A DNA stretch of 64,000 nt from Myxococcales bacterium (GCA_047601445.1 JASGJH010000001.1:9312001-9376000), one strand, 5' to 3'. Shown: positions 23,717 through 36,767, counted from the stretch's first letter. Translations and numbers: made by a program. Notes: generated by a model from the sequence alone, not told the origin.

Positions 23717-23761
23717 ACCAGGTGTCCCCGGTTGAGGCCGGGCTCGACGAGGAGTTGTCGT

Positions 23762-25405
23762 ATGACCCTCTCGCGGCGTCGTCAGATGAGCATGAGCGAG
23801 TTCGTGGCCGGTATGGAAGCCGCAGGTCTGCTCGTACGGATCAAGGAAGAGCGGCGTGTGGACCAGCTTCCGCAAGTCATGGAGGCGCATCCGACCAAGG
23901 CAGTGCTAGTCGAGAAGGTGAAGGACTGCGAGTTCTCGTTCCTGGCCAACGCCTATGCCACCCACGAGCAGTTTGCCTGGGCGCTGGAATGCGAACGCAA
24001 CCAAATCGGTGACCGAATCGCCGAGCTCGCCCGAGGAAGGGTGGAGCCCGAGGTCGTAGCGTCGGCTCCGTGCAAGCAGGTCATCCTCAAAGGCGACGAC
24101 GTGGACCTCACTCGCTTGCCCTTGTTCTTGCACCATGATCGCGACGGGCACGCATACACCAACGACAACCTGGTGATCACGCGCGATCCCGACACACGCA
24201 TCATCGACTGGGGTGTCTACCGCTCGATGTTCCGCACCAAGAGCGAGAAAAATTTCGACATGACCTGCACCAGCCATCGCGGGCGCCTGAACGGTCTCAA
24301 ATACCAGGCGCGCGGACAAAACATGCCGGTCGCGATCGTCCTCGGTGGGCCGACGCTCGACAAGCTGGCGTGTTTGGCAGGCGTGCCTCCGGAGACCTCG
24401 GACTTCGACGTGTTGGGGAGCTTCTACGGGCACGCGGCCAAGCTCGTGAAGTGCGAAACCAATGACCTGCTGGTGCCGGCCAACGCAGAGATCGTGCTGG
24501 AGGGTGAAGTGATTACCAGCGAAGGCTGGGTACACGACGAGGGACCCTACGGTGAATTCACGGGTATGTACGGTGGCGGGCTCAAGCACAATCCACGGGT
24601 CGTCATCCATTGCATGACCTATCGCAAGCACGCCATCTACCAGAACGCCACCATCGGCGGAGCCCACCCTGGCTACACCGACAACATGATCCAGCTGCCG
24701 GCCATCGAGAGCGATCTGTTCGCTGCGCTGCAGCTCGGGGGCATCAAGGTGCTCGACGTGCGTTGCCCGGCAGCGGGCCTCTCCAACATCGCGTACGCGC
24801 GCATCGAGCCGCAGGGCGGTGGCGATGCGAAGCAGGCCCTCTCGATCATGCTGACATGCTCCAAGCAAGGCTTGCCAAAGATCGCGATGGTGTTCGACGA
24901 CGACGTGGACATCTGGAACGACGACCGGATCCAGCAGTGCATGGCATTCCGTTACATGCCCGACCGGGACACGCTGATCATTCCGCAGTGCAACTCCATG
25001 TCGACCGATCCCAAGATCGAGGACGTTGACGCTCCGTTCTATGCGTCGAAGATCGGCATGGATTGCACGATTCCGCTGGTTGGAAAGTTCAATCGCAGTG
25101 CCTTCGACTGGTCGTCGGCCTGTGACCTGGGAGAGCCTCCTGCCAAGGTCCGCCCGATGAGCGAGGACGAGATTCTCGCCGACATGGGCGCCTTCATCCG
25201 TGCAGCGCCGCGCTCGTGGAAAGAAATCGTGCAGCGCTATCACGGGCAGCACTACCCGGCGATCTATCGTGCCTTCGGTCGCCTTCGCCACGAGCTTGGA
25301 CGTGCAGACGACGCGCCATGGTATCGCTACACCTTCTCGGACCGAGACTTCGCCTACGAAGCGCGTGTGTCGAGCCACGCCAATTTCGATCCCCGCCATC
25401 GTTAG
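23762..25405 (+). CDS. UbiD family prFMN-dependent (de)carboxylase
   Basis: VDLTRLP, GVYR, VPANAEIVLEG, EGPYGEFTG, DDDVDIWN, SKIGMDCT; GAGGAG RBS before ATG 23762. Confidence 0.92.
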   Translation: MTLSRRRQMSMSEFVAGMEAAGLLVRIKEERRVDQLPQVMEAHPTKAVLVEKVKDCEFSFLANAYATHEQFAWALECERNQIGDRIAELARGRVEPEVVASAPCKQVILKGDDVDLTRLPLFLHHDRDGHAYTNDNLVITRDPDTRIIDWGVYRSMFRTKSEKNFDMTCTSHRGRLNGLKYQARGQNMPVAIVLGGPTLDKLACLAGVPPETSDFDVLGSFYGHAAKLVKCETNDLLVPANAEIVLEGEVITSEGWVHDEGPYGEFTGMYGGGLKHNPRVVIHCMTYRKHAIYQNATIGGAHPGYTDNMIQLPAIESDLFAALQLGGIKVLDVRCPAAGLSNIAYARIEPQGGGDAKQALSIMLTCSKQGLPKIAMVFDDDVDIWNDDRIQQCMAFRYMPDRDTLIIPQCNSMSTDPKIEDVDAPFYASKIGMDCTIPLVGKFNRSAFDWSSACDLGEPPAKVRPMSEDEILADMGAFIRAAPRSWKEIVQRYHGQHYPAIYRAFGRLRHELGRADDAPWYRYTFSDRDFAYEARVSSHANFDPRHR

Positions 25406-25899
25406 CGAAGTCACACGGGCGCGCCTCGCAGGCGCTGTCGCGCGCGCCACGCTCGGGACGGGCGGCTCTGCTGTGAAACGTCATGTTCTGCGTGCGAACC
25501 GCTGCAGCTCTCGCGATGCCCTCGATCGGTCGAAGGACGTGGCGGCCCCCGAGCTCGGTTGCGTCATGTGCTCTTCGGCGAAAAGCGAGGGGCCTCTCAA
25601 TGTTTGCCTTGCTCGCGCGCTCGCATGACATCGTCGGGGGCACGAACCCGCGAATTGCTCGCTGATGCAGCGCGTAGGACAACGGCGTACGTTCGCGCGA
25701 AACACGGAATTTTGCTCCACCCGAGCGGTCTCCGTGAGCAGGCGTCCATGCGGCGTGTCGTGACAAAAAACGACCCGGCCGCGATTCGTCCATGCCATCA
25801 TCGCCGTCCAAGCCCGGGGGGGCGTGGTGCCGGTTCCGTCAGTCGGAGTCGTGCGCACGGTCGCGCTGCAGCGCGCCTCACCACCATCGTTGCGAGCGC

Positions 25900-27864
<1,965 letters not shown>

Positions 27865-27914: not shown

Positions 27915-27967
27915 GCCCCAAGGTGCCGACGGATCGGCATTTTTGCGGGAGTTTCGCGGCATCGTGC

Positions 27968-27984
27968 TTGGCACGCCTCCTGCT
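27968..27984 (+). promoter_or_regulatory. sigma54 promoter of the rsb operon
   Basis: TTGGCACGCCTCCTGCT: GG 27970-71, N10, GC 27982-83. Confidence 0.8.
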
Positions 27985-28036
27985 CAGCTCTCCTGGGGCG
28001 CTGACACGACCATGTCGGCGGCAGGGGGAACAAGGG

Positions 28037-28468
28037 ATGGATCAACACGCGATCCCAGTGATCGAACTTTGGGGACGTCTGATCGTCGCGTTGCAAGGTG
28101 ACGTGGGCGACACGCAGATGGAGCGACTGCGAGAGGAGGTCCTACAGCGCGTGCGCGAGCGCGGCGCCCAGGGCTTGGTGATCGACGCATCCGGCATGTG
28201 GATGGTGGACAGCCACCTGTGCGCGATGCTGGGGCGCATCGTCTCCTCGGCGCGCCTGATGGGCGTGCGCGCGGTGCTGTCCGGCCTATCACCGCAGGTC
28301 GTTCTCACGCTGGGGGAGATGGGCATCGACCTAGAGGGCATCAGCACCGCCCTCACCCTCGAAGAAGCTTTGGAATCGCTTGGGGTTGCCGCTCTGCGCG
28401 ATGACCAGACGCACAGCACGCAGACGCTCGCCGAGCAATGGATCGAACTAACTGGAGCCGACCGATGA
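28037..28468 (+). CDS. rsbS: Stressosome STAS protein RsbS
   Basis: IPVIELWGRLIVALQGD...GLVIDASG..MVDS (phospho-Ser), SGLSPQVVLTLGEMG. Confidence 0.88.
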   Translation: MDQHAIPVIELWGRLIVALQGDVGDTQMERLREEVLQRVRERGAQGLVIDASGMWMVDSHLCAMLGRIVSSARLMGVRAVLSGLSPQVVLTLGEMGIDLEGISTALTLEEALESLGVAALRDDQTHSTQTLAEQWIELTGADR

Positions 28469-29352
28469 GTGATGGGATTTTGACTGCCAACGATACCCTC
28501 GACCCCAAGAGCATGACCGCGATGCTGGGCGTCCTGTTCGACGACAACCCCGACGGGATCGTGATCGCGGACACCTCCGGTCGCATCACCTGCAATCCGG
28601 TGGCCATTGCGGCTATTGGCGCCCCCGACCCGGACGTCTCGCCCGAAGAATGGAGCGAGCGCTACGGCCTGTTTCACGAGGACCAGCAGACGCGCTTCCC
28701 TCCGAACGCCGATCCACTCGCGCTCGCCATGCAGGGGCAGGTCGTGTCGGACGTGATCATGTTCAGCCGCAACCCGAACAAGCCGGAGGGCATCTTCGTC
28801 AGTGTGAGCGCGCGCCCGCTGGCCAACGGTGGTGCCATCGCGGTGTTTCGCGACGTCACCGAGAGGCGCCGCATGGCGGACGACCTGGCTCAGCGCAACG
28901 CGGAGCTGGCACTGCGCGAGCAGGAGAATCGGGAGCTCATCGCGCGTCTGCGTGTGGCGGTGGACGAACTCTCGACCCCGGTGCTGGAGATCTGGAACGA
29001 CGTGCTCGCGCTGCCGGTAGTCGGCATCGTGGACACCCAGCGCAGCGCACGCATGACCGAGCGCCTGTTGGCGGAGGTCGTGCGTACTCGCTGTCGCTCG
29101 GTCATCGTGGACCTCACGGGCGTCGAGCTGATCGACACCAGCACCGCGGACCGCTTCATCAAGCTGGCTCGTTCGGTCCAGCTCTTGGGTTCACGCTGTC
29201 TGGTCACCGGCATTCAGCCGGCCGTGGCGCAGACCCTGGTCGAGCTGGGCGTGGAATTCAGCGCCCTCGAGACCCACCGGAACCTCAAGAGCGCGCTCGA
29301 GGCCAGCATCCGCCGCGACGTGGCGGAGCGTCGTGCGCACCAGGAGAGGTAA
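28465..29352 (+). CDS. rsbR: Stressosome sensor RsbR (PAS-coiled coil-STAS)
   Basis: ELSTPVLEIW..VLALPVVGIVDTQRS and DLTGV..IDT (both Thr sites), TGIQPAVAQTLVELG; ATGA overlap with rsbS. Confidence 0.9.
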   Translation: MSDGILTANDTLDPKSMTAMLGVLFDDNPDGIVIADTSGRITCNPVAIAAIGAPDPDVSPEEWSERYGLFHEDQQTRFPPNADPLALAMQGQVVSDVIMFSRNPNKPEGIFVSVSARPLANGGAIAVFRDVTERRRMADDLAQRNAELALREQENRELIARLRVAVDELSTPVLEIWNDVLALPVVGIVDTQRSARMTERLLAEVVRTRCRSVIVDLTGVELIDTSTADRFIKLARSVQLLGSRCLVTGIQPAVAQTLVELGVEFSALETHRNLKSALEASIRRDVAERRAHQER

Positions 29353-29355
29353 GCC

Positions 29356-29799
29356 GTGTTGGGCCAAGAGGACACCGCGCCATTGATGCTGCTGCTCGGG
29401 AAGAGCGCCTCCGACCGCTTCGGATGCGCCTCGTCGGTCAAGCTCTTCGCGCGACGGGTGGGACTCTCGCCGAAGCGAGCGGAGGAGCTCGCGATCGTCG
29501 CCTCCGAGCTGGCCTCGAACGTGATCCGTCACGCCGACTCGGGTGCGCTGGAGCTGCGCCTGGAGTCGCAGCCACGTCCGCATGTCTTGCTGGTCTGTCG
29601 CGATCGGGGCCCCGGCATCGTCAACCCCGATGAAGCGCGTCGGGACGGCTTCTCGCGTGGGCAGATGCTGGCGCCCGACGCGCGCCGTGAGGGGCTCGGT
29701 AAGGGGCTGGGCGCGGTGGAGCGTCTGGTCGACGAGCTCAGGATCGAGTCGGTGGTGGGCTGTGGAACCACGGTCATCGTACGGAAGTGGATGCCATGA
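29356..29799 (+). CDS. rsbT: RsbT-like Ser/Thr switch kinase, copy 1
   Basis: IVASELASNVIRHA, DRGPGI, GLGKGL..VERLVDE..IES..G.GTTV..RKW. Confidence 0.85.
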   Translation: MLGQEDTAPLMLLLGKSASDRFGCASSVKLFARRVGLSPKRAEELAIVASELASNVIRHADSGALELRLESQPRPHVLLVCRDRGPGIVNPDEARRDGFSRGQMLAPDARREGLGKGLGAVERLVDELRIESVVGCGTTVIVRKWMP

Positions 29800-30464
29800 A
29801 CCTCGCAGACAGCTTGCGCCAGGCGCTGCGTGGGAACCTGAGCGCCATCTCCATCGAGTCGTTGATTCAGCGCCATGTCAGCGCCCCTGCGGCCACCGTG
29901 GCGGACCTACCCAAGAGCACGCGGGAAGAGTTGGCGGAGCGCGTCGCGAGCAGCGTGCGCCTGTTCAGCGCCAGTGAACCAGGGCTGCTGCGTACGCGCA
30001 TCCGGGTGGCACTGGGCCTCGACGAGGGGTTCCAGGACAGCGGGGCCGCGGGCGGGCTGCGGTCCCAGGTCGTTTCGGTCCGAGGTGAGCTCGACGTGAG
30101 CGTGGCGCGCAACGAAGCCCGCAGCCTGACGCTGGCACAGGGAGGCAGCGGGATGTTGGCGGTCAAGGTCGCGACCGCCGTCTCGGAGCTCGCGCGCAAC
30201 ATCGTGCTCTATGCGGGCACGGGTTCGGTGGCGATCGAGGTGCAGACGGAAGCTGCGGGCTTGGTGGTCCGGATTGTCGCGCGCGACGACGGACCTGGCA
30301 TCGCGCCCAGCCAGCTCGAGGCCATGTTTGCCGGGTCCTACCGCTCACGCAGTGGGCTTGGCAAAGGGCTGTTGGGCGTGAAGCGCGTGGCCAGTGACTT
30401 CAAAATCAACACCGCGCTCGGAAAGGGCACCATCGTGCACGCGGTGTTTCGAGGTAACTCGTGA
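29796..30464 (+). CDS. rsbT: RsbT-like kinase with ~85-aa N-terminal extra domain, copy 2
   Basis: ATAVSELARNIVLYA, DDGPGI, YRSRSGLGKGLLGVKR; ATGA overlap. Confidence 0.85.
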   Translation: MNLADSLRQALRGNLSAISIESLIQRHVSAPAATVADLPKSTREELAERVASSVRLFSASEPGLLRTRIRVALGLDEGFQDSGAAGGLRSQVVSVRGELDVSVARNEARSLTLAQGGSGMLAVKVATAVSELARNIVLYAGTGSVAIEVQTEAAGLVVRIVARDDGPGIAPSQLEAMFAGSYRSRSGLGKGLLGVKRVASDFKINTALGKGTIVHAVFRGNS

Positions 30465-31072
30465 TCAGCGCGATCGGTAGAGCTCGAGCTTATCCGGGTG
30501 AGCCGCGCTCGGGCGACGCGGTGTTGATCGAGGAGGTCCAAGGCAGGGTGTTGCTCGCGCTGGTCGACGCGCTCGGTCATGGACCCGTGGCAGCGTCGGC
30601 TGCCGATCTGGCAGTGGCGACCATTCGAGAGCACCGCAACGAGCGCCCAGCGCGCATCCTGCAGGCCTGTCACGAGCGTTTGCTGCGCGGGCGCGGTGCT
30701 GCGATCTCCGTGATCACGTTCGATGCGAGCGGCCACGGCGTCTTCGCGGGTGTGGGCAACGTGAGCGCCCGCGTCTATCCGGAGTCGCGCCACAATCCAG
30801 TGCTATTGCCGGGGTCGGGCGTCATCGGATATCGGCATCGTACCCTGCGTGAGGTGGAGTTCCGCCTCGCTGGCGACAGCGTCGGCCTGCTCTACAGTGA
30901 CGGCATCAGCTCCCGCGTCGACCCCATCGATCGCTCCCGGCTCACCCTCGCAGAAGCCTCCAAGCAGCTGCTCGCCGACTTCGGCAAACCAACCGACGAT
31001 GCCAGCCTGATCCTGTTCGCCCATCGAGGGAGTCCTCGCTTCGCACCCGAGCACGAGGCCGCCGTGCGCTGA
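30461..31072 (+). CDS. rsbX: RsbX-like PP2C/SpoIIE phosphatase
   Basis: GEPRSGD, LVDALGHGP, RGAA, AGVGNV, YSDGI, DDASL; GTGA overlap. Confidence 0.85.
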   Translation: MISAIGRARAYPGEPRSGDAVLIEEVQGRVLLALVDALGHGPVAASAADLAVATIREHRNERPARILQACHERLLRGRGAAISVITFDASGHGVFAGVGNVSARVYPESRHNPVLLPGSGVIGYRHRTLREVEFRLAGDSVGLLYSDGISSRVDPIDRSRLTLAEASKQLLADFGKPTDDASLILFAHRGSPRFAPEHEAAVR

Positions 31073-31170: not shown

Positions 31171-34100
31171 TCACGTCTCCTCATACACATGCCCATGCAG
31201 GTCCGGCGGGTCCTCGCGCAAGACCTGCAGCGCCCGCCGTGTCTTCGGTGCACTCTGGACAGTCTGCTCGCCGCGCGCGCGTTCGAGCTCGCCCTGGCGC
31301 AGTCGTCCGCGATGCAGCACTCGCGTTACGCCAGGGATGTTGAGCAGCGGTGGCGCGACCAGGGTCTCCAGCGAGAGCATGGAGCAGGGACAGTTGGCGC
31401 AGCTGCCCACGAAGCGCACGCTCACCTCGCCCGTGCTCTCGTCGAAGCCCACCAGATTGATGCGACCCCCGTCGTTGTCGAGCACCGGGCCGATGAAGGA
31501 GTCGATGACCTCGCGTACTTTGGCCTGAGCGCTGGTCGTGCTGTCGGTGATCACGCTGGAAAACGAGCGGAAGCGGGCCTCGCCGCAGTCGCCGACCTCG
31601 ATCCCGAGCTGCCGCGATTGCAGCCGCTCGATCAGGTCCGAGTCGGCTTGCGCGTCGAGCATCTCGAGCCCCACCAGCCCTTGCACCAACGCCGGCGAGA
31701 GGTTCGCGTGCAGCAGGAAGTCCCGATAGTCACGCGCGGCCGCCGGTACGAAGGAGAGCTTTTGCGTGAACTCTCGCCAGGGCAGCGCCACCGGGCCTGC
31801 CAGCCGAAAGTTGCCTGCGTCCACGCGCACGAACTGGGCCACCAGCTCGGCCAGTCGGTCGAAGAAGCGCCGGTGCTCCGCCTTGCTCGCGCTGCGCTTC
31901 TTCACGATCACCTTGGATCGCAGCGCGATCAGCTCCTTGTCCTTGGGCAGGACCCCGGTCACTACGTCGACCTTGACCGCGAGGTTGCGGCGGCGATCGA
32001 CGACGATCACCGCGTTGGTACCGGTGGCCCGCGAATGCACCAGGCGCGCCGCGTCGAGGTCGGCAGGCGTGATCCCCATGAAGTACGCGGGGACGTCGCC
32101 CGCGCACGGGATCGCGATGCCCGAAATCAGCGCGAGATCCTCACGCGGCACGGGTCGACCGCGGCCGAACAGGGCCTCGATGCCGGCCTTGATCGCCACG
32201 AACAGCTGAACCGCTACGACCTCTTCCTTGAGCTCGAGCACCGCGCTCTTGTGGGCCAGCAGCAGGTTGGCCTCCTCCACGCGTTCGTCGGCGCCGAGCA
32301 TCGGCACACCGCCAACGAGGTCCGACAGCAAGGTCAGGAGCGCGTTGTCGTACTCGATGCGTCGCAGGAGCGGCAGCAACACGTACAGGAGACGCTCCCT
32401 CGCATCGGCGGGCAGGGTGGCCAGCAGCAGCGCCCCTCGAGCTCGGTAGGCGGCGTCGTTCATGTAACGCTGCACGAAGGTGGCCATGGCCCCCACGGCC
32501 TCGGCGCGTGCACATTCTTGCTCGCCCCGGGGCTTGCGGAGCTCCTCCCAGGGCAGCCAGTCCGGCGCACCGGGCTCGCCGCGGGCCGCGCGTTCCATGG
32601 CCTGTTCGTCCGGATAGACGGCACGATAGTGGGCGTAGAGGCGCTCCACGCTCTGGAGCAGCGCAGCACGCTCGGGTTCCTGCCACAGGGCCGCCTCGAG
32701 CTTTCCGAGCTTCTCGAGCCGCACCGGGGTGCGCTTGATCAGGCTCTGGTTGGTGAAGCGATCACTGTCGAGATAGTCCGTCAAGCGGTTGGTCTCGCCC
32801 GCCACGAAGTCGAGGAAGGGGAACTCCACGGGCGCGTTCTCGTTCAGCGAGACGGTGCCGATGACCACGCCGTGCTGGCTCGACATCCGCACTGCGTCGC
32901 CCTCGGCGAGCCCTTCGCGCGCGGCGTAGCTCGGGTGGATCTGGATCGCGTAGGACTCGTCGTGGCGGCCCGCGATGGCCATGCTCTTGATGCCCGAGTT
33001 GTAGCGGCGAACGTAGAGCTTGGCGTCCTTGCCCGGTCGGCCACGCCCCGTGATCAAGCTGCGCAGCTGCTCGTCGCCGCGCGCCACCAGGTTCGCGAGC
33101 AGCTCCTCCGGTGGACGCACCAGCCGCGCCTGCCTGCGTTCGTGCTGCCGCAGACCCGGAAACACGTTGCCCTCGCTGCGCGCGTGCGCGTAGCGACCGT
33201 CGCCCTGCCACTGCACGCCCAAGCCTGCCCGCTGCTTGAGCAGCGCATGGGAGATCGGGGTGCCGTGCTCGTCTTCGAGGCGATTGTAGACGTCGAGCGC
33301 CCGCGAGGTCGACACCACGTGATCGAACACGTCGGAGGCACGGACGCTGCCGTCGGCTTGCAGGTAGCGCCCGAACGCGCGCGTGATCACGTCGGGGTCG
33401 AGGTCGTTCAACGCCGCCGTGTCGGTGTCGCGCAGGCGAGCCGCGATGGTCAGGGCGAGTCGCGCCAGGATCTGCTCGTCGGACCAGGCCAGGGCAGGAG
33501 GCTCGCTGATGCCCTGCTGGAGCTGCAACGTGCGGTCGCCGCGTTGAATCACGCCGGTCCGCTCGGTGTAGGTGAGGGCGGGCAAGATCACGTCGGCGTG
33601 GTCGAGCGCACCCTCCGGCAGGAACGAGTCGATCACGATGTTGTAGGCGCGCCCCAGGCGGCGCTTCCACTGGCCGAGACGCGGCATATTGCGCGTCATC
33701 TGGGTGCCCAGGAACAGGAAGCAGTACAGGTGGTCGTCCTCGGACATGCGCGCCACCGGGGTCCCCTCGGTGCGCGGAATATTGTGCTCCGGGATGTCGA
33801 GCAGCTCCGCGAGCTCCCTGCGGTGCGCCGGGTTGGCCGGGTCGAGGTTGAACACCAGCTTGCGTGAGTTCATCCCCAGCATGAGCTCACTGGTGGCGTT
33901 CGACTGGCCGGCGATGCGCATGGAGCCGGCGCCTCGCCGGCCGACGTTGCCGGTCAAGAGCAGCAGGTTCAAGTTGGTGGAGAAGCCGTAGGAGCCGGTG
34001 CTCTGGTTGATGCCCATGCTCGACACGAAGGCGGGCTTGGGGCGCTCTCCCGCCTCGTTCGGACGCGCGATCAGGCGAGCGTAGGCGCGGATGGTCGCCG

Positions 34101-35076
34101 CAAGCTCACTCACGTCCTGCCCCTCGAGCGCGATGCGGCGCGCCACCGTATCCACCGCGAAGCGTGGCTCCAGGCACATGGCCTCGAAGGCCGCGCGACT
34201 GGCGGGATCCACCGCGCGCTCGAGGTAGGCGCGGTCCTCCCAGCCCTGCATCAGGATCTCGTGGGCCACGGCCATGTTGAAGAGCACGTCGCCGCCCTGT
34301 TCGAAGCGAATGTGCAGCGTGCGTGGATCACTCGCTTGCAGGTCCACCACGGTGTGGGAGCGAACCGGATCGATCACGACCTTGACGGCCGCCTCGTTGC
34401 GCTTGGCCTTGGCGAAGGCCTGCGGAAAGGTCACGAGCGGGTTCGTGCCGTGCATCACGATCACGTCGGCCAGCGCCAGCTCCTCGAACTCGTGCCAGGT
34501 GAAGGAAGCTTCGTTGCCGAAGTTCAAGGTATGGCCCGCACCCGCGCTAGCCAGGCAGTGCTCGGAGTTGGCTCCCAGCGTCGAGATCTGGAAGACCAGC
34601 TTGTAGAGGCACTCCATCCAGATGGCTTCGACGGTCTGTTGTCCGTTGCCGTACATGGCGATGCCAGTCGGCCCGATCCACTCGCGAATGTGCAGGAACA
34701 GCCAGGCCGCGCGGTCGAGGGCGCGCTCCCAGGAGACCACCTCCATCTTGCCATCGTGCCCGCGGATCATCGGGGCTCGGATGCGGTCGTCCGCGATGCC
34801 GTGCTTCTCCAGCCGGCGTCGGCGCTGCAGGTCGCCGCCGGTCTCCAGAGACGTCAAACCCTTCACGCACAGGCCCAGGTCGCTGAGCGGCACCAAGCGT
34901 TCCTTCGAGCCCTCATCCCGCTGCACGGTGAAGGAGCAGCCCACGCCGCAGTAGCTGCATACGGATGCGCGCGACGTGAGCTCGGCGTGCCGCTGCTGGG
35001 CCTCGACATCGGTCCGTAGTTCTGCACTCTCGGCGAAGCGGCGAAGAAAGTCGGCGGGCTCCTCACGGGCGGCCAT
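31171..35076 (-). CDS. Mo-bisPGD oxidoreductase (NasA/NarB/NapA-like) fused to an unknown domain and a C-terminal NifU domain
   Basis: CSYCGVGC..LCVKG [4Fe-4S]; EHCLASA Mo-ligand Cys; SMGINQS; GQSNA; ADVILPA; IHPSYA..EGL.EGD.V; C-terminal PVLDNDGG...GSCANC; AGGAGG RBS; no Tat signal. Confidence 0.88.
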   Translation of the reverse strand: MAAREEPADFLRRFAESAELRTDVEAQQRHAELTSRASVCSYCGVGCSFTVQRDEGSKERLVPLSDLGLCVKGLTSLETGGDLQRRRRLEKHGIADDRIRAPMIRGHDGKMEVVSWERALDRAAWLFLHIREWIGPTGIAMYGNGQQTVEAIWMECLYKLVFQISTLGANSEHCLASAGAGHTLNFGNEASFTWHEFEELALADVIVMHGTNPLVTFPQAFAKAKRNEAAVKVVIDPVRSHTVVDLQASDPRTLHIRFEQGGDVLFNMAVAHEILMQGWEDRAYLERAVDPASRAAFEAMCLEPRFAVDTVARRIALEGQDVSELAATIRAYARLIARPNEAGERPKPAFVSSMGINQSTGSYGFSTNLNLLLLTGNVGRRGAGSMRIAGQSNATSELMLGMNSRKLVFNLDPANPAHRRELAELLDIPEHNIPRTEGTPVARMSEDDHLYCFLFLGTQMTRNMPRLGQWKRRLGRAYNIVIDSFLPEGALDHADVILPALTYTERTGVIQRGDRTLQLQQGISEPPALAWSDEQILARLALTIAARLRDTDTAALNDLDPDVITRAFGRYLQADGSVRASDVFDHVVSTSRALDVYNRLEDEHGTPISHALLKQRAGLGVQWQGDGRYAHARSEGNVFPGLRQHERRQARLVRPPEELLANLVARGDEQLRSLITGRGRPGKDAKLYVRRYNSGIKSMAIAGRHDESYAIQIHPSYAAREGLAEGDAVRMSSQHGVVIGTVSLNENAPVEFPFLDFVAGETNRLTDYLDSDRFTNQSLIKRTPVRLEKLGKLEAALWQEPERAALLQSVERLYAHYRAVYPDEQAMERAARGEPGAPDWLPWEELRKPRGEQECARAEAVGAMATFVQRYMNDAAYRARGALLLATLPADARERLLYVLLPLLRRIEYDNALLTLLSDLVGGVPMLGADERVEEANLLLAHKSAVLELKEEVVAVQLFVAIKAGIEALFGRGRPVPREDLALISGIAIPCAGDVPAYFMGITPADLDAARLVHSRATGTNAVIVVDRRRNLAVKVDVVTGVLPKDKELIALRSKVIVKKRSASKAEHRRFFDRLAELVAQFVRVDAGNFRLAGPVALPWREFTQKLSFVPAAARDYRDFLLHANLSPALVQGLVGLEMLDAQADSDLIERLQSRQLGIEVGDCGEARFRSFSSVITDSTTSAQAKVREVIDSFIGPVLDNDGGRINLVGFDESTGEVSVRFVGSCANCPCSMLSLETLVAPPLLNIPGVTRVLHRGRLRQGELERARGEQTVQSAPKTRRALQVLREDPPDLHGHVYEET

Positions 35077-35241
35077 GAACTCATCCTCCTAAGAAACCAG
35101 ACGAAGAAAGGTCTGACTGTCACCGCTATCACCGCGCGCCGAGGCTGCGCAGTATCCGGCTGCGACAACAAGCCTGACCGAAGGGACACTCGGCGCAGAT
35201 TGCGTCTTCGCAGGCGTGAGGAAGGCGCTAGCGTCACGTCG

Positions 35242-35811
35242 ATGCGTCTGTCGTTGATTTGCTCGATGTTCTTGTTCGTTGCCTGCGGCGACTCCTCGGA
35301 TACCGAACGAACCTCCGGAGGTGACCCGCCTGACCATGCTGCCGATGCAGGCCACGCTGCGGGCGAACACGGCGACGCGGGCTTCGACGAAACCGCTGGC
35401 GCGGAGCTCGGTGCGGCCTGCGATCCGGAGCATGCAAGCTCCTGCGGCGGGGACGACAACAAGTGCCTCACGGAGCTCGCGGTGCTCGACACCCGGGTCG
35501 AGTTCCGCGGCGGCTACTGCTCGGCAGGCTGTGACACCTCCGCGGAATGCGGCGCCGATGGGGCCTGTCCGGTCGGCGAGACGCGCGCCGAGCTCGCGGG
35601 CACGCCCATGGCAGCGTTGTTCGATACGCTGCCTTCCAATTGCCTACGCGCCTGTGAGTCGGCCGCGGAATGTCGCACCGAGGAGGGCTACGACTGCAAG
35701 CCCATGACGGCGGCCATGCCCGAGCAGCTGCGCGCCATCGTGGGCACGCTGCTCGCCGACAAGCCCATCACGAAGCGCACGCTCTGCGTCCCCATCCAGC
35801 CCGCGAAGTGA
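35242..35811 (+). CDS. Cys-rich lipoprotein
   Basis: Lipobox FVAC; GAAC, GGYCS..C, CLRAC, CR..EGYDC pattern typical of myxobacterial Cys-rich domains. Confidence 0.75.
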   Translation: MRLSLICSMFLFVACGDSSDTERTSGGDPPDHAADAGHAAGEHGDAGFDETAGAELGAACDPEHASSCGGDDNKCLTELAVLDTRVEFRGGYCSAGCDTSAECGADGACPVGETRAELAGTPMAALFDTLPSNCLRACESAAECRTEEGYDCKPMTAAMPEQLRAIVGTLLADKPITKRTLCVPIQPAK

Positions 35812-35828
35812 TGCGTGCTGTGAACTCG

Positions 35829-36660
<832 letters not shown>

Positions 36661-36767
36661 GGAACTAGGCCGTGCATGTAGCACGCGGCCCCGACCCCTC
36701 GCGCGCCCGCTGGGAGGACAGCGAACCTCGCGGAGGAGTGGGTCCGGTGCCCCCCGTTCAGGAAAAA

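Follow-up and report, generated by a model that had tools for sequence, protein, structure and literature searches.

Enzymes with a molybdenum bis-pyranopterin guanine dinucleotide (Mo-bisPGD) cofactor carry out chemistry that drives the nitrogen, arsenic, iodine, and carbon cycles. The nitrate reductases NasA, NasC, and NarB are cytoplasmic and Cys-ligated, with one N-terminal [4Fe-4S] cluster and a relay lysine, and NarB takes electrons from ferredoxin or flavodoxin. In NapA of Campylobacter jejuni, the channel is described as consisting of Arg174, Asp191, Glu192, Arg463, Arg471, and His715, with Lys79 as the relay (PMC12769810). AioA and IdrA are periplasmic, contain a [3Fe-4S] cluster, and have no protein ligand to Mo; the placement of AioA/IdrA, NasA, and NapA is uncertain, for which Wells et al. 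blame lost intermediates (PMC10100899). Regarding maturation, FdhD is a cysteine-dependent sulfurtransferase whose Nap equivalent is given as unknown (PMC10609526, section 3.3), and NfuA rebuilds the lipoyl synthase cluster while that enzyme turns over, its own CxxC-bound cluster being believed to lie between two monomers (PMC9585516). The subject of this study is a gene in a 64,000-nucleotide stretch of DNA from a Myxococcales bacterium (GCA_047601445.1, JASGJH010000001.1:9312001-9376000), hereafter the window, in whose coordinates positions are given. The gene (31171-35076, minus strand) is a single intact open frame of 1301 aa, in which a catalytic unit of the Mo-bisPGD/[4Fe-4S] type is followed by a helical connector, an FmdE-fold domain, and an Nfu domain. 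It represents a rare, tightly conserved, and apparently unstudied family, which is new as a family but belongs to a known kind of enzyme and is not a new type of system. A new architecture within the dimethyl sulfoxide (DMSO) reductase family had been proposed in a preliminary description of the window made from the sequence alone, and none like it was found in the literature searched, most subscription papers being outside the search.

The fusion family and its distribution

A Shine-Dalgarno sequence, AGGAGG (35085-35090, minus strand), lies 8 nt ahead of the ATG, and a promoter and terminator scan of the window at 30.8-38.3 kb gave no signal above shuffled sequence. Codon use is genome-typical in the Mo, middle, and Nfu parts alike; the G+C content at third codon positions is 0.88, and the codon likelihood is at the 79th percentile relative to 1595 filtered long open reading frames (ORFs) of the genome. 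Pfam matches were obtained for Molybdop_Fe4S4 (aa 36-57, below cut-off), Molybdopterin (PF00384, aa 98-541), Molydop_binding (PF01568, aa 689-778), and NifU (PF01106, aa 1187-1252). The strings EHCLASA, GQSNATSE, GIAIPCAGDVPAYFMG, PVLDNDGG, and GSCANC, singled out in the preliminary description, are all present in the translation. None of the NCBIfam models reached its cut-off on the 1301-aa protein. The best was Fdh-alpha (174 bits against 666), and the nitrate reductase models were far under theirs (NasC NF047855, 144 against 1100; NF041323, 139 against 1000; NapA, 103 against 904), the Nas-type score being about one-eighth of the cut-off.

A homolog search with aa 790-1301 as the query yielded 123 homologs, 120 of them listed. 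All three main Pfam domains were present in 116 of the 120, and the fusion therefore defines a family; the 1301-aa ORF joining a molybdoenzyme to a NifU-type domain, as originally read, is both open and matched by equally fused homologs. The preliminary description had also raised the possibilities that the homologs are split and that the middle region is a NasA module; the homologs proved to be fused, and the middle region is not such a module. The 108 listed homologs with a length of at least 1230 aa served as the full-length set for conservation counts. Identity over aa 790-1301 was 44-57%, save for one close relative at 78%. Source names, where given, included cyanobacteria, Caldilineaceae, Alpha- and Gammaproteobacteria, Myxococcota, and Verrucomicrobiota, and two RefSeq members come from named genera (Marinicellulosiphila megalodicopiae WP_422381154.1 and Minwuia WP_281017185.1). 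Columns conserved in at least 90% of the full-length set made up 48% of the Mo core, 33% of domain IV, 35% of the FmdE-like part (aa 934-1105), and 37% of the Nfu domain, compared with 16% of the helical connector and 9% of the variable linker. The FmdE-like and Nfu parts are thus about as conserved as domain IV.

Neither natural split nor Mo-only forms were detected: among the best 8000 candidates scored (E ≤ 1e-40), 26 matches of 330-1050 aa were inspected without any showing a clean end after domain IV, and the shorter versions resembled contig-end fragments or frameshifts. One of them, the 874-aa protein P0209 on 9 contigs, has a tail that looks out of frame beyond aa ~807 and is possibly a genuine broken allele. 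The existence of broken homologs, together with a frameshift in an ABC ATPase gene ~1 kb upstream in the same assembly, could suggest that the fusion is an artefact of assembly or gene calling, or a pseudogene. This explanation was rejected on account of the 108 full-length homologs, which come from independent assemblies and include one on a 4.6-Mb contig of a named species; moreover, the broken homologs stop at scattered positions (out-of-frame tails or contig ends), and most of them have a full-length close relative. The probability of an artefact is accordingly negligible.

A metagenome scan, in which 80 of 193 relatives were kept, making up 78 loci, separated 18 loci at 58-70% identity from 60 at 25-30%, with a gap between them. 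The profile of the FmdE-like domain gave 17 matches in 1.84 billion representatives, all of which aligned to full-length family members. Searches for the middle domain were negative in three sets of genomes: 400 sampled from the host's phylum, where the best other matches had E values of 2e-10 or weaker and all the listed ones were centred on the NifU part; 60 relatives, nine of them congeneric, at 72-99% completeness; and 21 others from the family to which a second carrier, G440, belongs. The viral contigs searched contained no relative of the protein, and none of the 962 matching plasmid records covered 80% of it. The patchy distribution combined with high conservation points to horizontal transfer of the gene, which probably spreads as a lone unit. 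Some members are labelled as nitrate reductases in databases, and this label may be wrong. NifU-type matches were also noted in long frames of other genomes of the phylum (L088 in G343:C9, 946 aa; L097 in G247:C50, 1502 aa; G398:C293, 807 aa), which may be other Nfu fusions or frame artefacts.

Catalytic unit and C-terminal tail

With PF00384 and PF01568 above cut-off and fold matches to FdhH and NapA, the protein belongs to the DMSO reductase (MopB) superfamily. The N-terminal [4Fe-4S] site (aa 36-74; 34855-34971, minus strand, as are all features of the gene given below) was delimited by alignment to NapA, NasA, and Fdh and comprises C40, C43, C47, C70, and K72, the last at the position of the cluster-to-pterin lysine; C40, C43, and C47 are kept in 107 of the 108 full-length members (one gap), and C70 and K72 in all. 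The Mo-bisPGD core (aa 98-660; 33097-34785) matched FdhH and NapA in Foldseek at E ~1e-32, with a TM-score to the target of ~0.8. The query of this search, which ranked these two enzymes on top, was an AlphaFold2 model of aa 33-1190 with a predicted local distance difference test score (pLDDT) of 90 and a predicted TM-score (pTM) of 0.90. The Mo-ligand loop (aa 168-182; 34531-34575) carries the predicted ligand C174 along with E172, H173, and H182, each in 108/108, and alignments place R387, Q391, E397, L398, and a basic residue kept at 405/406 in the active-site loop (aa 380-406; 33859-33939). Domain IV, binding the molybdopterin dinucleotide (PF01568; aa 661-789; 32710-33096), includes R678, N693, K781, and an Arg-rich insert. 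The cofactor-site residues kept are C40, C43, C47, C70, K72, C174, M354, N357, Q391, N393, R678, N693, and K781. On the basis of these residues and of moaA in the host, binding of a Mo/W cofactor is predicted, and the protein is very probably a redox enzyme with that cofactor bound. It is likely cytoplasmic, since a simple pattern search found no twin-arginine (Tat)-like motif in any full-length member. The preliminary description of a cytoplasmic [4Fe-4S]/Mo-bisPGD enzyme with a Cys ligand and altered active-site strings agrees with the kept cluster cysteines and C174 and with the changes in the channel.

The C. jejuni NapA channel positions were mapped through E. coli NapA, with the numbering checked. 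Arg174 corresponds to E172 and Arg463 to L398, both invariant in 108/108 members; Asp191 corresponds to E189, Glu192 to A190, and Arg471 to K/R406. His715 falls in a loop of unsure alignment and is absent from Nas enzymes as well. By comparison, both channel arginines (at the Cys-2 and GGRE positions) were present in 55/55 metagenomic Nas-type proteins from 60 loci, five too-short ones being dropped. E397, H182, and R387 are new invariant residues. The replacement of both NapA/NasA channel arginines in every member supports the suspicion, already voiced in the preliminary description, of a non-nitrate substrate, and the main substrate is probably something other than nitrate.

In overall profile scores, the family is closest to NasA/NasC/NarB, with 26-30% identity in the best aligned segment, and shares with them the Cys ligand, the single N-terminal [4Fe-4S] cluster, and the relay lysine. 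It differs from them in the two replaced arginines, a changed GQ-x-N loop, two insertions, a tail of FmdE-fold and Nfu domains in place of a BFD or flavodoxin module, and the lack of a nas operon context. The best PDB sequence match of the whole protein was Desulfovibrio NapA (E 7e-33), with which it has in common the relay lysine and, as in the E. coli enzyme, a His-Cys pair; unlike NapA, it has neither a Tat signal nor nap partners, is changed at the Arg174 and Arg463 positions, and extends by ~510 C-terminal residues. FdhF/FdsA have the same fold and supplied the top Foldseek match (1fdi) as well as the top NCBIfam match, but the Fdh marks are missing: L175 stands where His follows the Cys/Sec ligand, and A389 where Arg precedes GQ (108/108).

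Resemblance to AioA/IdrA-type enzymes is concentrated in aa 230-410, for which the 11 best PDB matches were all AioA/AroA. Insertion 1 (aa 236-255; 34312-34371) is 19-21 residues long in 108/108 members and 21 in 2/2 AioA-like proteins, compared with 14 in all but one of the 17 Nas/Nap/Fdh references, the exception having 18. Insertion 2 (aa 332-355; 34012-34083), which by PDB alignment also shares a Pro/Arg pattern with this clade, is 23-26 residues in the five members aligned, 24 in 2/2 AioA-like proteins, and 16-19 in 17/17 references. The R387-x-x-G-Q391 string aligns with R-M-G-G-H of AioA, where the Arg is Arg419 by the 1g8j range; according to a motif search, Arg occupies this position in 108/108 members, 2/2 AioA-like proteins, and 0/78 other references. 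Arg419 of AioA binds arsenite; a literature search aimed at this role returned no paper. A feature search of the ESM Atlas, regarded as a lead only, placed arsenite-oxidase clusters on top, the best three at 0.93. In contrast to AioA/IdrA, the family keeps C174 and the four cluster cysteines, positions at which the AioA-like proteins differ, lacks a Tat signal and a conserved Rieske neighbour, and is less similar overall than it is to Nas. The similarity of the family's NSEHC string to NSEC/NSEV of AioA is offset in the alignment and was rejected as a coincidence. The two AioA-like proteins, at L164 (G096) and L165 (G182), are AioA/IdrA-clade frames of 1003 and 1046 aa, against ~820 aa for solved AioA chains, and come from 2 of 301 genomes of the host's phylum; they are possibly fusions or IdrA-type enzymes. 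No FmdE gene was found beside these two loci.

Phylogenetic trees were quick runs, the first leaving out 11 of 48 rows and the others being built on 22, 24, and 18 chosen rows. The family formed a fully supported clade with short inner branches and a very long stem of 1.7-3.1 changes per site, depending on the model. In the 22-row tree, the Fdh clade excluded the family with 100/99 support.

The tail had been described as about 400 aa of unrecognised sequence ending in a NifU domain. The middle part is not a single unknown domain; it comprises a helical connector (aa 790-933; 32278-32709), an FmdE/FwdE-fold domain (aa 934-1105; 31762-32277), and a variable linker (aa 1106-1180; 31537-31761) of low conservation and lower pLDDT. 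In the AlphaFold2 model of aa 790-1265 (pLDDT 91.8, pTM 0.91), a bundle of helices can be distinguished from an alpha+beta domain and from the Nfu domain. The weakly conserved connector, identified from this model, had no structural match above Z 6.1 in the VIA search with the model. The Nfu (NifU C-terminal) domain (aa 1181-1256; 31309-31536), on which the earlier reading proved correct, matched PF01106 at E 2.3e-12 and CnfU (2z51) at VIA Z 10.3, and its CxxC (C1226/C1229) is present in 107 of 108 members, with one gap. The pTM values of both models are consistent with packed domains, and that of the aa 33-1190 model with a tail that may lie against the catalytic unit.

The structure search suggested for the middle domain led to FmdE/FwdE: in a wide VIA search, aa 934-1105 matched three such structures at Z 11.8, 11.2, and 10.5 with a root-mean-square deviation (rmsd) of ~3 Å over 131-146 residues (best 2glz, Z 11.8, rmsd 3.1, 141 residues), and the best row that was neither FmdE nor Nfu reached Z 6.8. 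The structural alignments show 9-12% identity. Pfam FmdE (PF02663) matched at E 0.0021, below cut-off, and was found in 10 of 13 members at E ≤ 10, while HHalign against 18 FmdE proteins gave a probability of 91%, placing C991-x-x-D994 on the Cys-x-x-Asp of FmdE (Cys55/Asp58 position); in global mode, H942 was aligned with the second His of the HGH motif. The FmdE Cys at this position binds Zn/Ni together with the FHGHxC motif, and a covalent unknown ligand is described in one crystal form (PMC2954224). Invariant residues of the domain are H942, E948, K950, E951, E952, C991, D994, H1014, and H1068. When the FmdE profile was run on six-frame ORFs of 21 loci, only fused proteins were matched (12 weak matches). 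No usable match to aa 925-1125 was obtained from the ESM Atlas, and Foldseek alone found none for aa 790-1265 at E ≤ 0.001. When aa 790-1139 (the helical and FmdE-like part), the Nfu domain, and a 4Fe-4S ligand were predicted as a complex, the score was 0.01, which was counted neither way. The Nfu domain differs from NfuA/NFU1 in that no A-type N-terminal domain was detected and in being fused to its presumed client enzyme, and the host keeps a separate NfuA-sized protein; the fold and CxxC nevertheless fit a putative cluster carrier.

Predicted function and its alternatives

We tentatively favour a single-chain, likely cytoplasmic Mo (or W) bis-pterin reductase of a non-nitrate oxy-compound, with a built-in tail for cofactor maintenance. 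Electrons from a general soluble carrier (ferredoxin or flavodoxin) would be taken up by the N-terminal [4Fe-4S] cluster, next to two Arg-rich patches, and relayed through K72 and the pterin to Mo, where a small oxy-compound other than nitrate would be reduced. Given the agreement of R387 and the two insertions with the AioA/IdrA clade, the first guess for the substrate is an oxy-species of a halogen or metalloid, such as iodate, chlorate, arsenate, or antimonate, and an N-oxide is the second. The CxxC of the Nfu domain would hold an exchangeable [4Fe-4S] cluster, either between two chains or with the help of C991, and would restore the catalytic cluster after oxidative or nitrosative damage, while the FmdE-fold domain would use C991 to bind the Mo cofactor or to sulfurate it, as FdhD does for formate dehydrogenases. 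The FdhD and NfuA precedents (PMC10609526, PMC9585516) make this role plausible rather than shown. A self-maintenance kit of this kind would explain why the gene travels alone between phyla. Also counted in favour were the stress-type genes adjoining single members (globin, DUF1858, catalase-peroxidase-like protein, and GST) and the host's possession of separate Nas-type enzymes with no FdhD found.

Several observations weigh against this proposal. Median profile scores over the whole Mo domain were 167 bits for Nas, 127 for Nap, 116 for Fdh, and 62 for AioA-like proteins, and AioA was favoured by profile score only in aa 230-300; the AioA-like sample consisted of two proteins from the host's phylum, complemented by PDB alignments. 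The approximately unbiased test on the 24-row set rejected neither the grouping of the family with AioA (p-AU 0.345) nor that with NapA (p-AU 0.238), and the node among Nas, Nap, and Aio stayed open in the first tree as well as under a mixture model (18 rows). One haloarchaeal NasA likewise has no Arg at the Arg174 position. Since the channel retains the basic residues R387, R405, K/R406, and K147 (105/108; Q in the window protein), anions including nitrate may be substrates. In the FmdE-fold domain, the metal motif FHGHxC is not kept: one His aligns, and the motif Cys is replaced by a Glu-rich insert. The function of the FmdE family is itself left open in PMC2954224. The stress-type neighbours occur at one or two independent loci each, where chance is possible; none of the ORFs scanned could be recognised as an arsenic- or iodine-related neighbour; and G440, the other carrier checked, does have FdhD.

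The basic residues are also the starting point for reading the protein as a nitrate reductase that has diverged strongly and serves assimilation or redox balance; R387, R405/406, and K147 would stand in for the lost arginines, and the tail would be a maturation aid. The Nas-type profiles are the best overall, the Cys ligand, the His-Cys pair, and the MG(I/V)NQ and GQ-x-N motifs are kept, and the family is outside the Fdh clade. Globins convert nitric oxide to nitrate, and the one beside two independent members could supply the substrate. Both channel arginines are changed throughout the family, however; no nitrite reductase or nitrate transporter was recognised among the window ORFs scanned or the neighbours at loci L001-L019 (several on short contigs), the host already has two Nas-type enzymes, and the stem branch is very long. 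We regard this reading as rather doubtful, though one to be kept in view. Another possibility concerns the tail, in which C991, nearby His and Glu residues, and the Nfu CxxC could form a fixed metal or thiol site that feeds the Mo centre or performs a second catalytic step on the same substrate. Nine invariant polar residues in the FmdE-like domain exceed the needs of a scaffold, no partner subunit is encoded nearby, the model that includes the Nfu domain has a pTM of 0.91, and the FmdE core is reported to have a thioredoxin-like fold with circular permutation and to be similar to a domain of serine dehydratase as well (PMC2954224). Such a fixed site fits poorly with the known role of Nfu domains as cluster carriers, in which two monomers are believed to share the cluster (PMC9585516), and with the 75-residue variable linker ahead of the Nfu domain. 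As a whole, this reading is unlikely; for the tail taken by itself, maintenance is the somewhat likelier role, and electron entry is a lesser possibility.

A stand-alone gene with no electron-transfer neighbours would also suit a non-redox or sulfur-transfer enzyme with no need of an electron partner. Acetylene hydratase adds water at a Mo/W site in the reduced state, acidic residues acting as acid/base, and invariant E172/H173 at the Cys ligand, as well as E397, could be seen in this light. The sequence and fold matches point instead to Nas, Nap, Fdh, and Aio, acetylene hydratase, an enzyme named in PMC10100899, is not among the matches listed, and the relay lysine K72 is invariant, which makes an enzyme of this kind very unlikely. 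A bolder form of the reductase proposal was also considered, in which the family would be a surviving sister or intermediate lineage between the Cys-ligated nitrate reductases and the ligand-free AioA/IdrA, acting as a self-maturing cytoplasmic reductase of halogen or metalloid oxy-species, with the FmdE-fold domain sulfurating or inserting the Mo cofactor via C991 and the Nfu domain supplying clusters. It is quite unlikely, but if true it would assign a function to the FmdE fold for the first time and offer a way into the sulfuration of Nap/Nas-type cofactors without FdhD.

Returning to the favoured maintenance-tailed reductase, the family bears on three questions which the respective papers leave open: the function of FmdE (PMC2954224), the sulfuration of Nap-type cofactors (PMC10609526), and the placement of AioA/IdrA, NasA, and NapA (PMC10100899); the main text of the last mentions neither NifU, NfuA, nor FmdE. 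Since the family is conserved and its active site, although invariant, is unfamiliar, its reaction is probably one that has yet to be assigned. The proposal is directly testable, since it concerns one soluble gene with RefSeq entries from named genera.

Genomic context and host genome

The host genome is a single contig of 9.5 Mb and is 98.7% complete. Plus-strand genes flank the minus-strand gene on both sides. Downstream, a stressosome-like module (27923-31072, plus strand) converges on it and consists of a STAS protein, a PAS-STAS protein, two HATPase anti-sigma-type kinases, and a SpoIIE phosphatase. Upstream are an unannotated ORF of 203 aa (plus strand) and then genes for an MlaF-like ATPase and a haem-oxygenase-like diiron protein (minus strand). 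As initially stated, no nitrite reductase, transporter, or Mo-cofactor gene is nearby among 15 neighbouring ORFs at 21.8-41.6 kb, the MlaF-like ABC ATPase being the sole transporter part.

The neighbourhood comparison covered the window at 20-46 kb and loci L001-L019, representing 13 distinct neighbourhoods with usable flanks, several of them short. A "redox island" formed by the stressosome-like and diiron genes, as suggested earlier, was rejected: the stressosome-like genes are on the opposite strand, and no homolog of the island genes recurs beside any family member at these loci. Outside the gene itself, the only cross-locus matches were a globin (L002/L005 and L014), one enzyme (L002/L005 and L007), an ABC uptake cluster (L003 and L010), and generic ABC ATPases. 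The gene therefore stands alone, without conserved neighbours. DUF1858 (L004), a catalase-peroxidase-like protein (L001), GST (L002), TauE, and CobW were each seen as neighbours at single loci. The single-domain globin is directly beside the family gene (L002/L005, 11841-12743, minus strand; L014, 800-1237, plus strand), and the two copies are 51% identical; the three globin matches of the host are far from the window. The ABC uptake cluster (L003, 1-2924; L010, 11857-16016) is found on the upstream side of the gene at one of these loci and on the downstream side at the other; it looks like a sugar or glycerol-phosphate type, for which Pfam gives solute-binding families only.

Eight PF00384 matches were found in the host. 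One belongs to a NasC-like enzyme (807 bits), after which comes an FAD/BFD protein. A second Nas-like Mo enzyme (G000:C1, 8445273-8449231; L143, 13274-17232, minus strand) is preceded by a fusion of ferredoxin with a DmsC membrane anchor, an unusual partner for a Nas-like enzyme, and another unassigned Mo enzyme is 2 kb off. The genome also contains NIR/SIR-type genes, moaA, a mobA-like gene (below cut-off), and the separate NfuA-sized protein, and FdhD was not detected in it.

Three further features of the window were noted. The gene of the MlaF-like ABC ATPase (35644-36684, minus strand) is frameshifted near 36080, with the protein continuing in another frame, which indicates either an assembly indel or a broken gene. 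The diiron protein (PF14518; 36768-38168, minus strand) has no NCBIfam match. At 23732-27864 (plus strand), a UbiD-family decarboxylase below all NCBIfam cut-offs is followed by a PAS sigma-54 activator.

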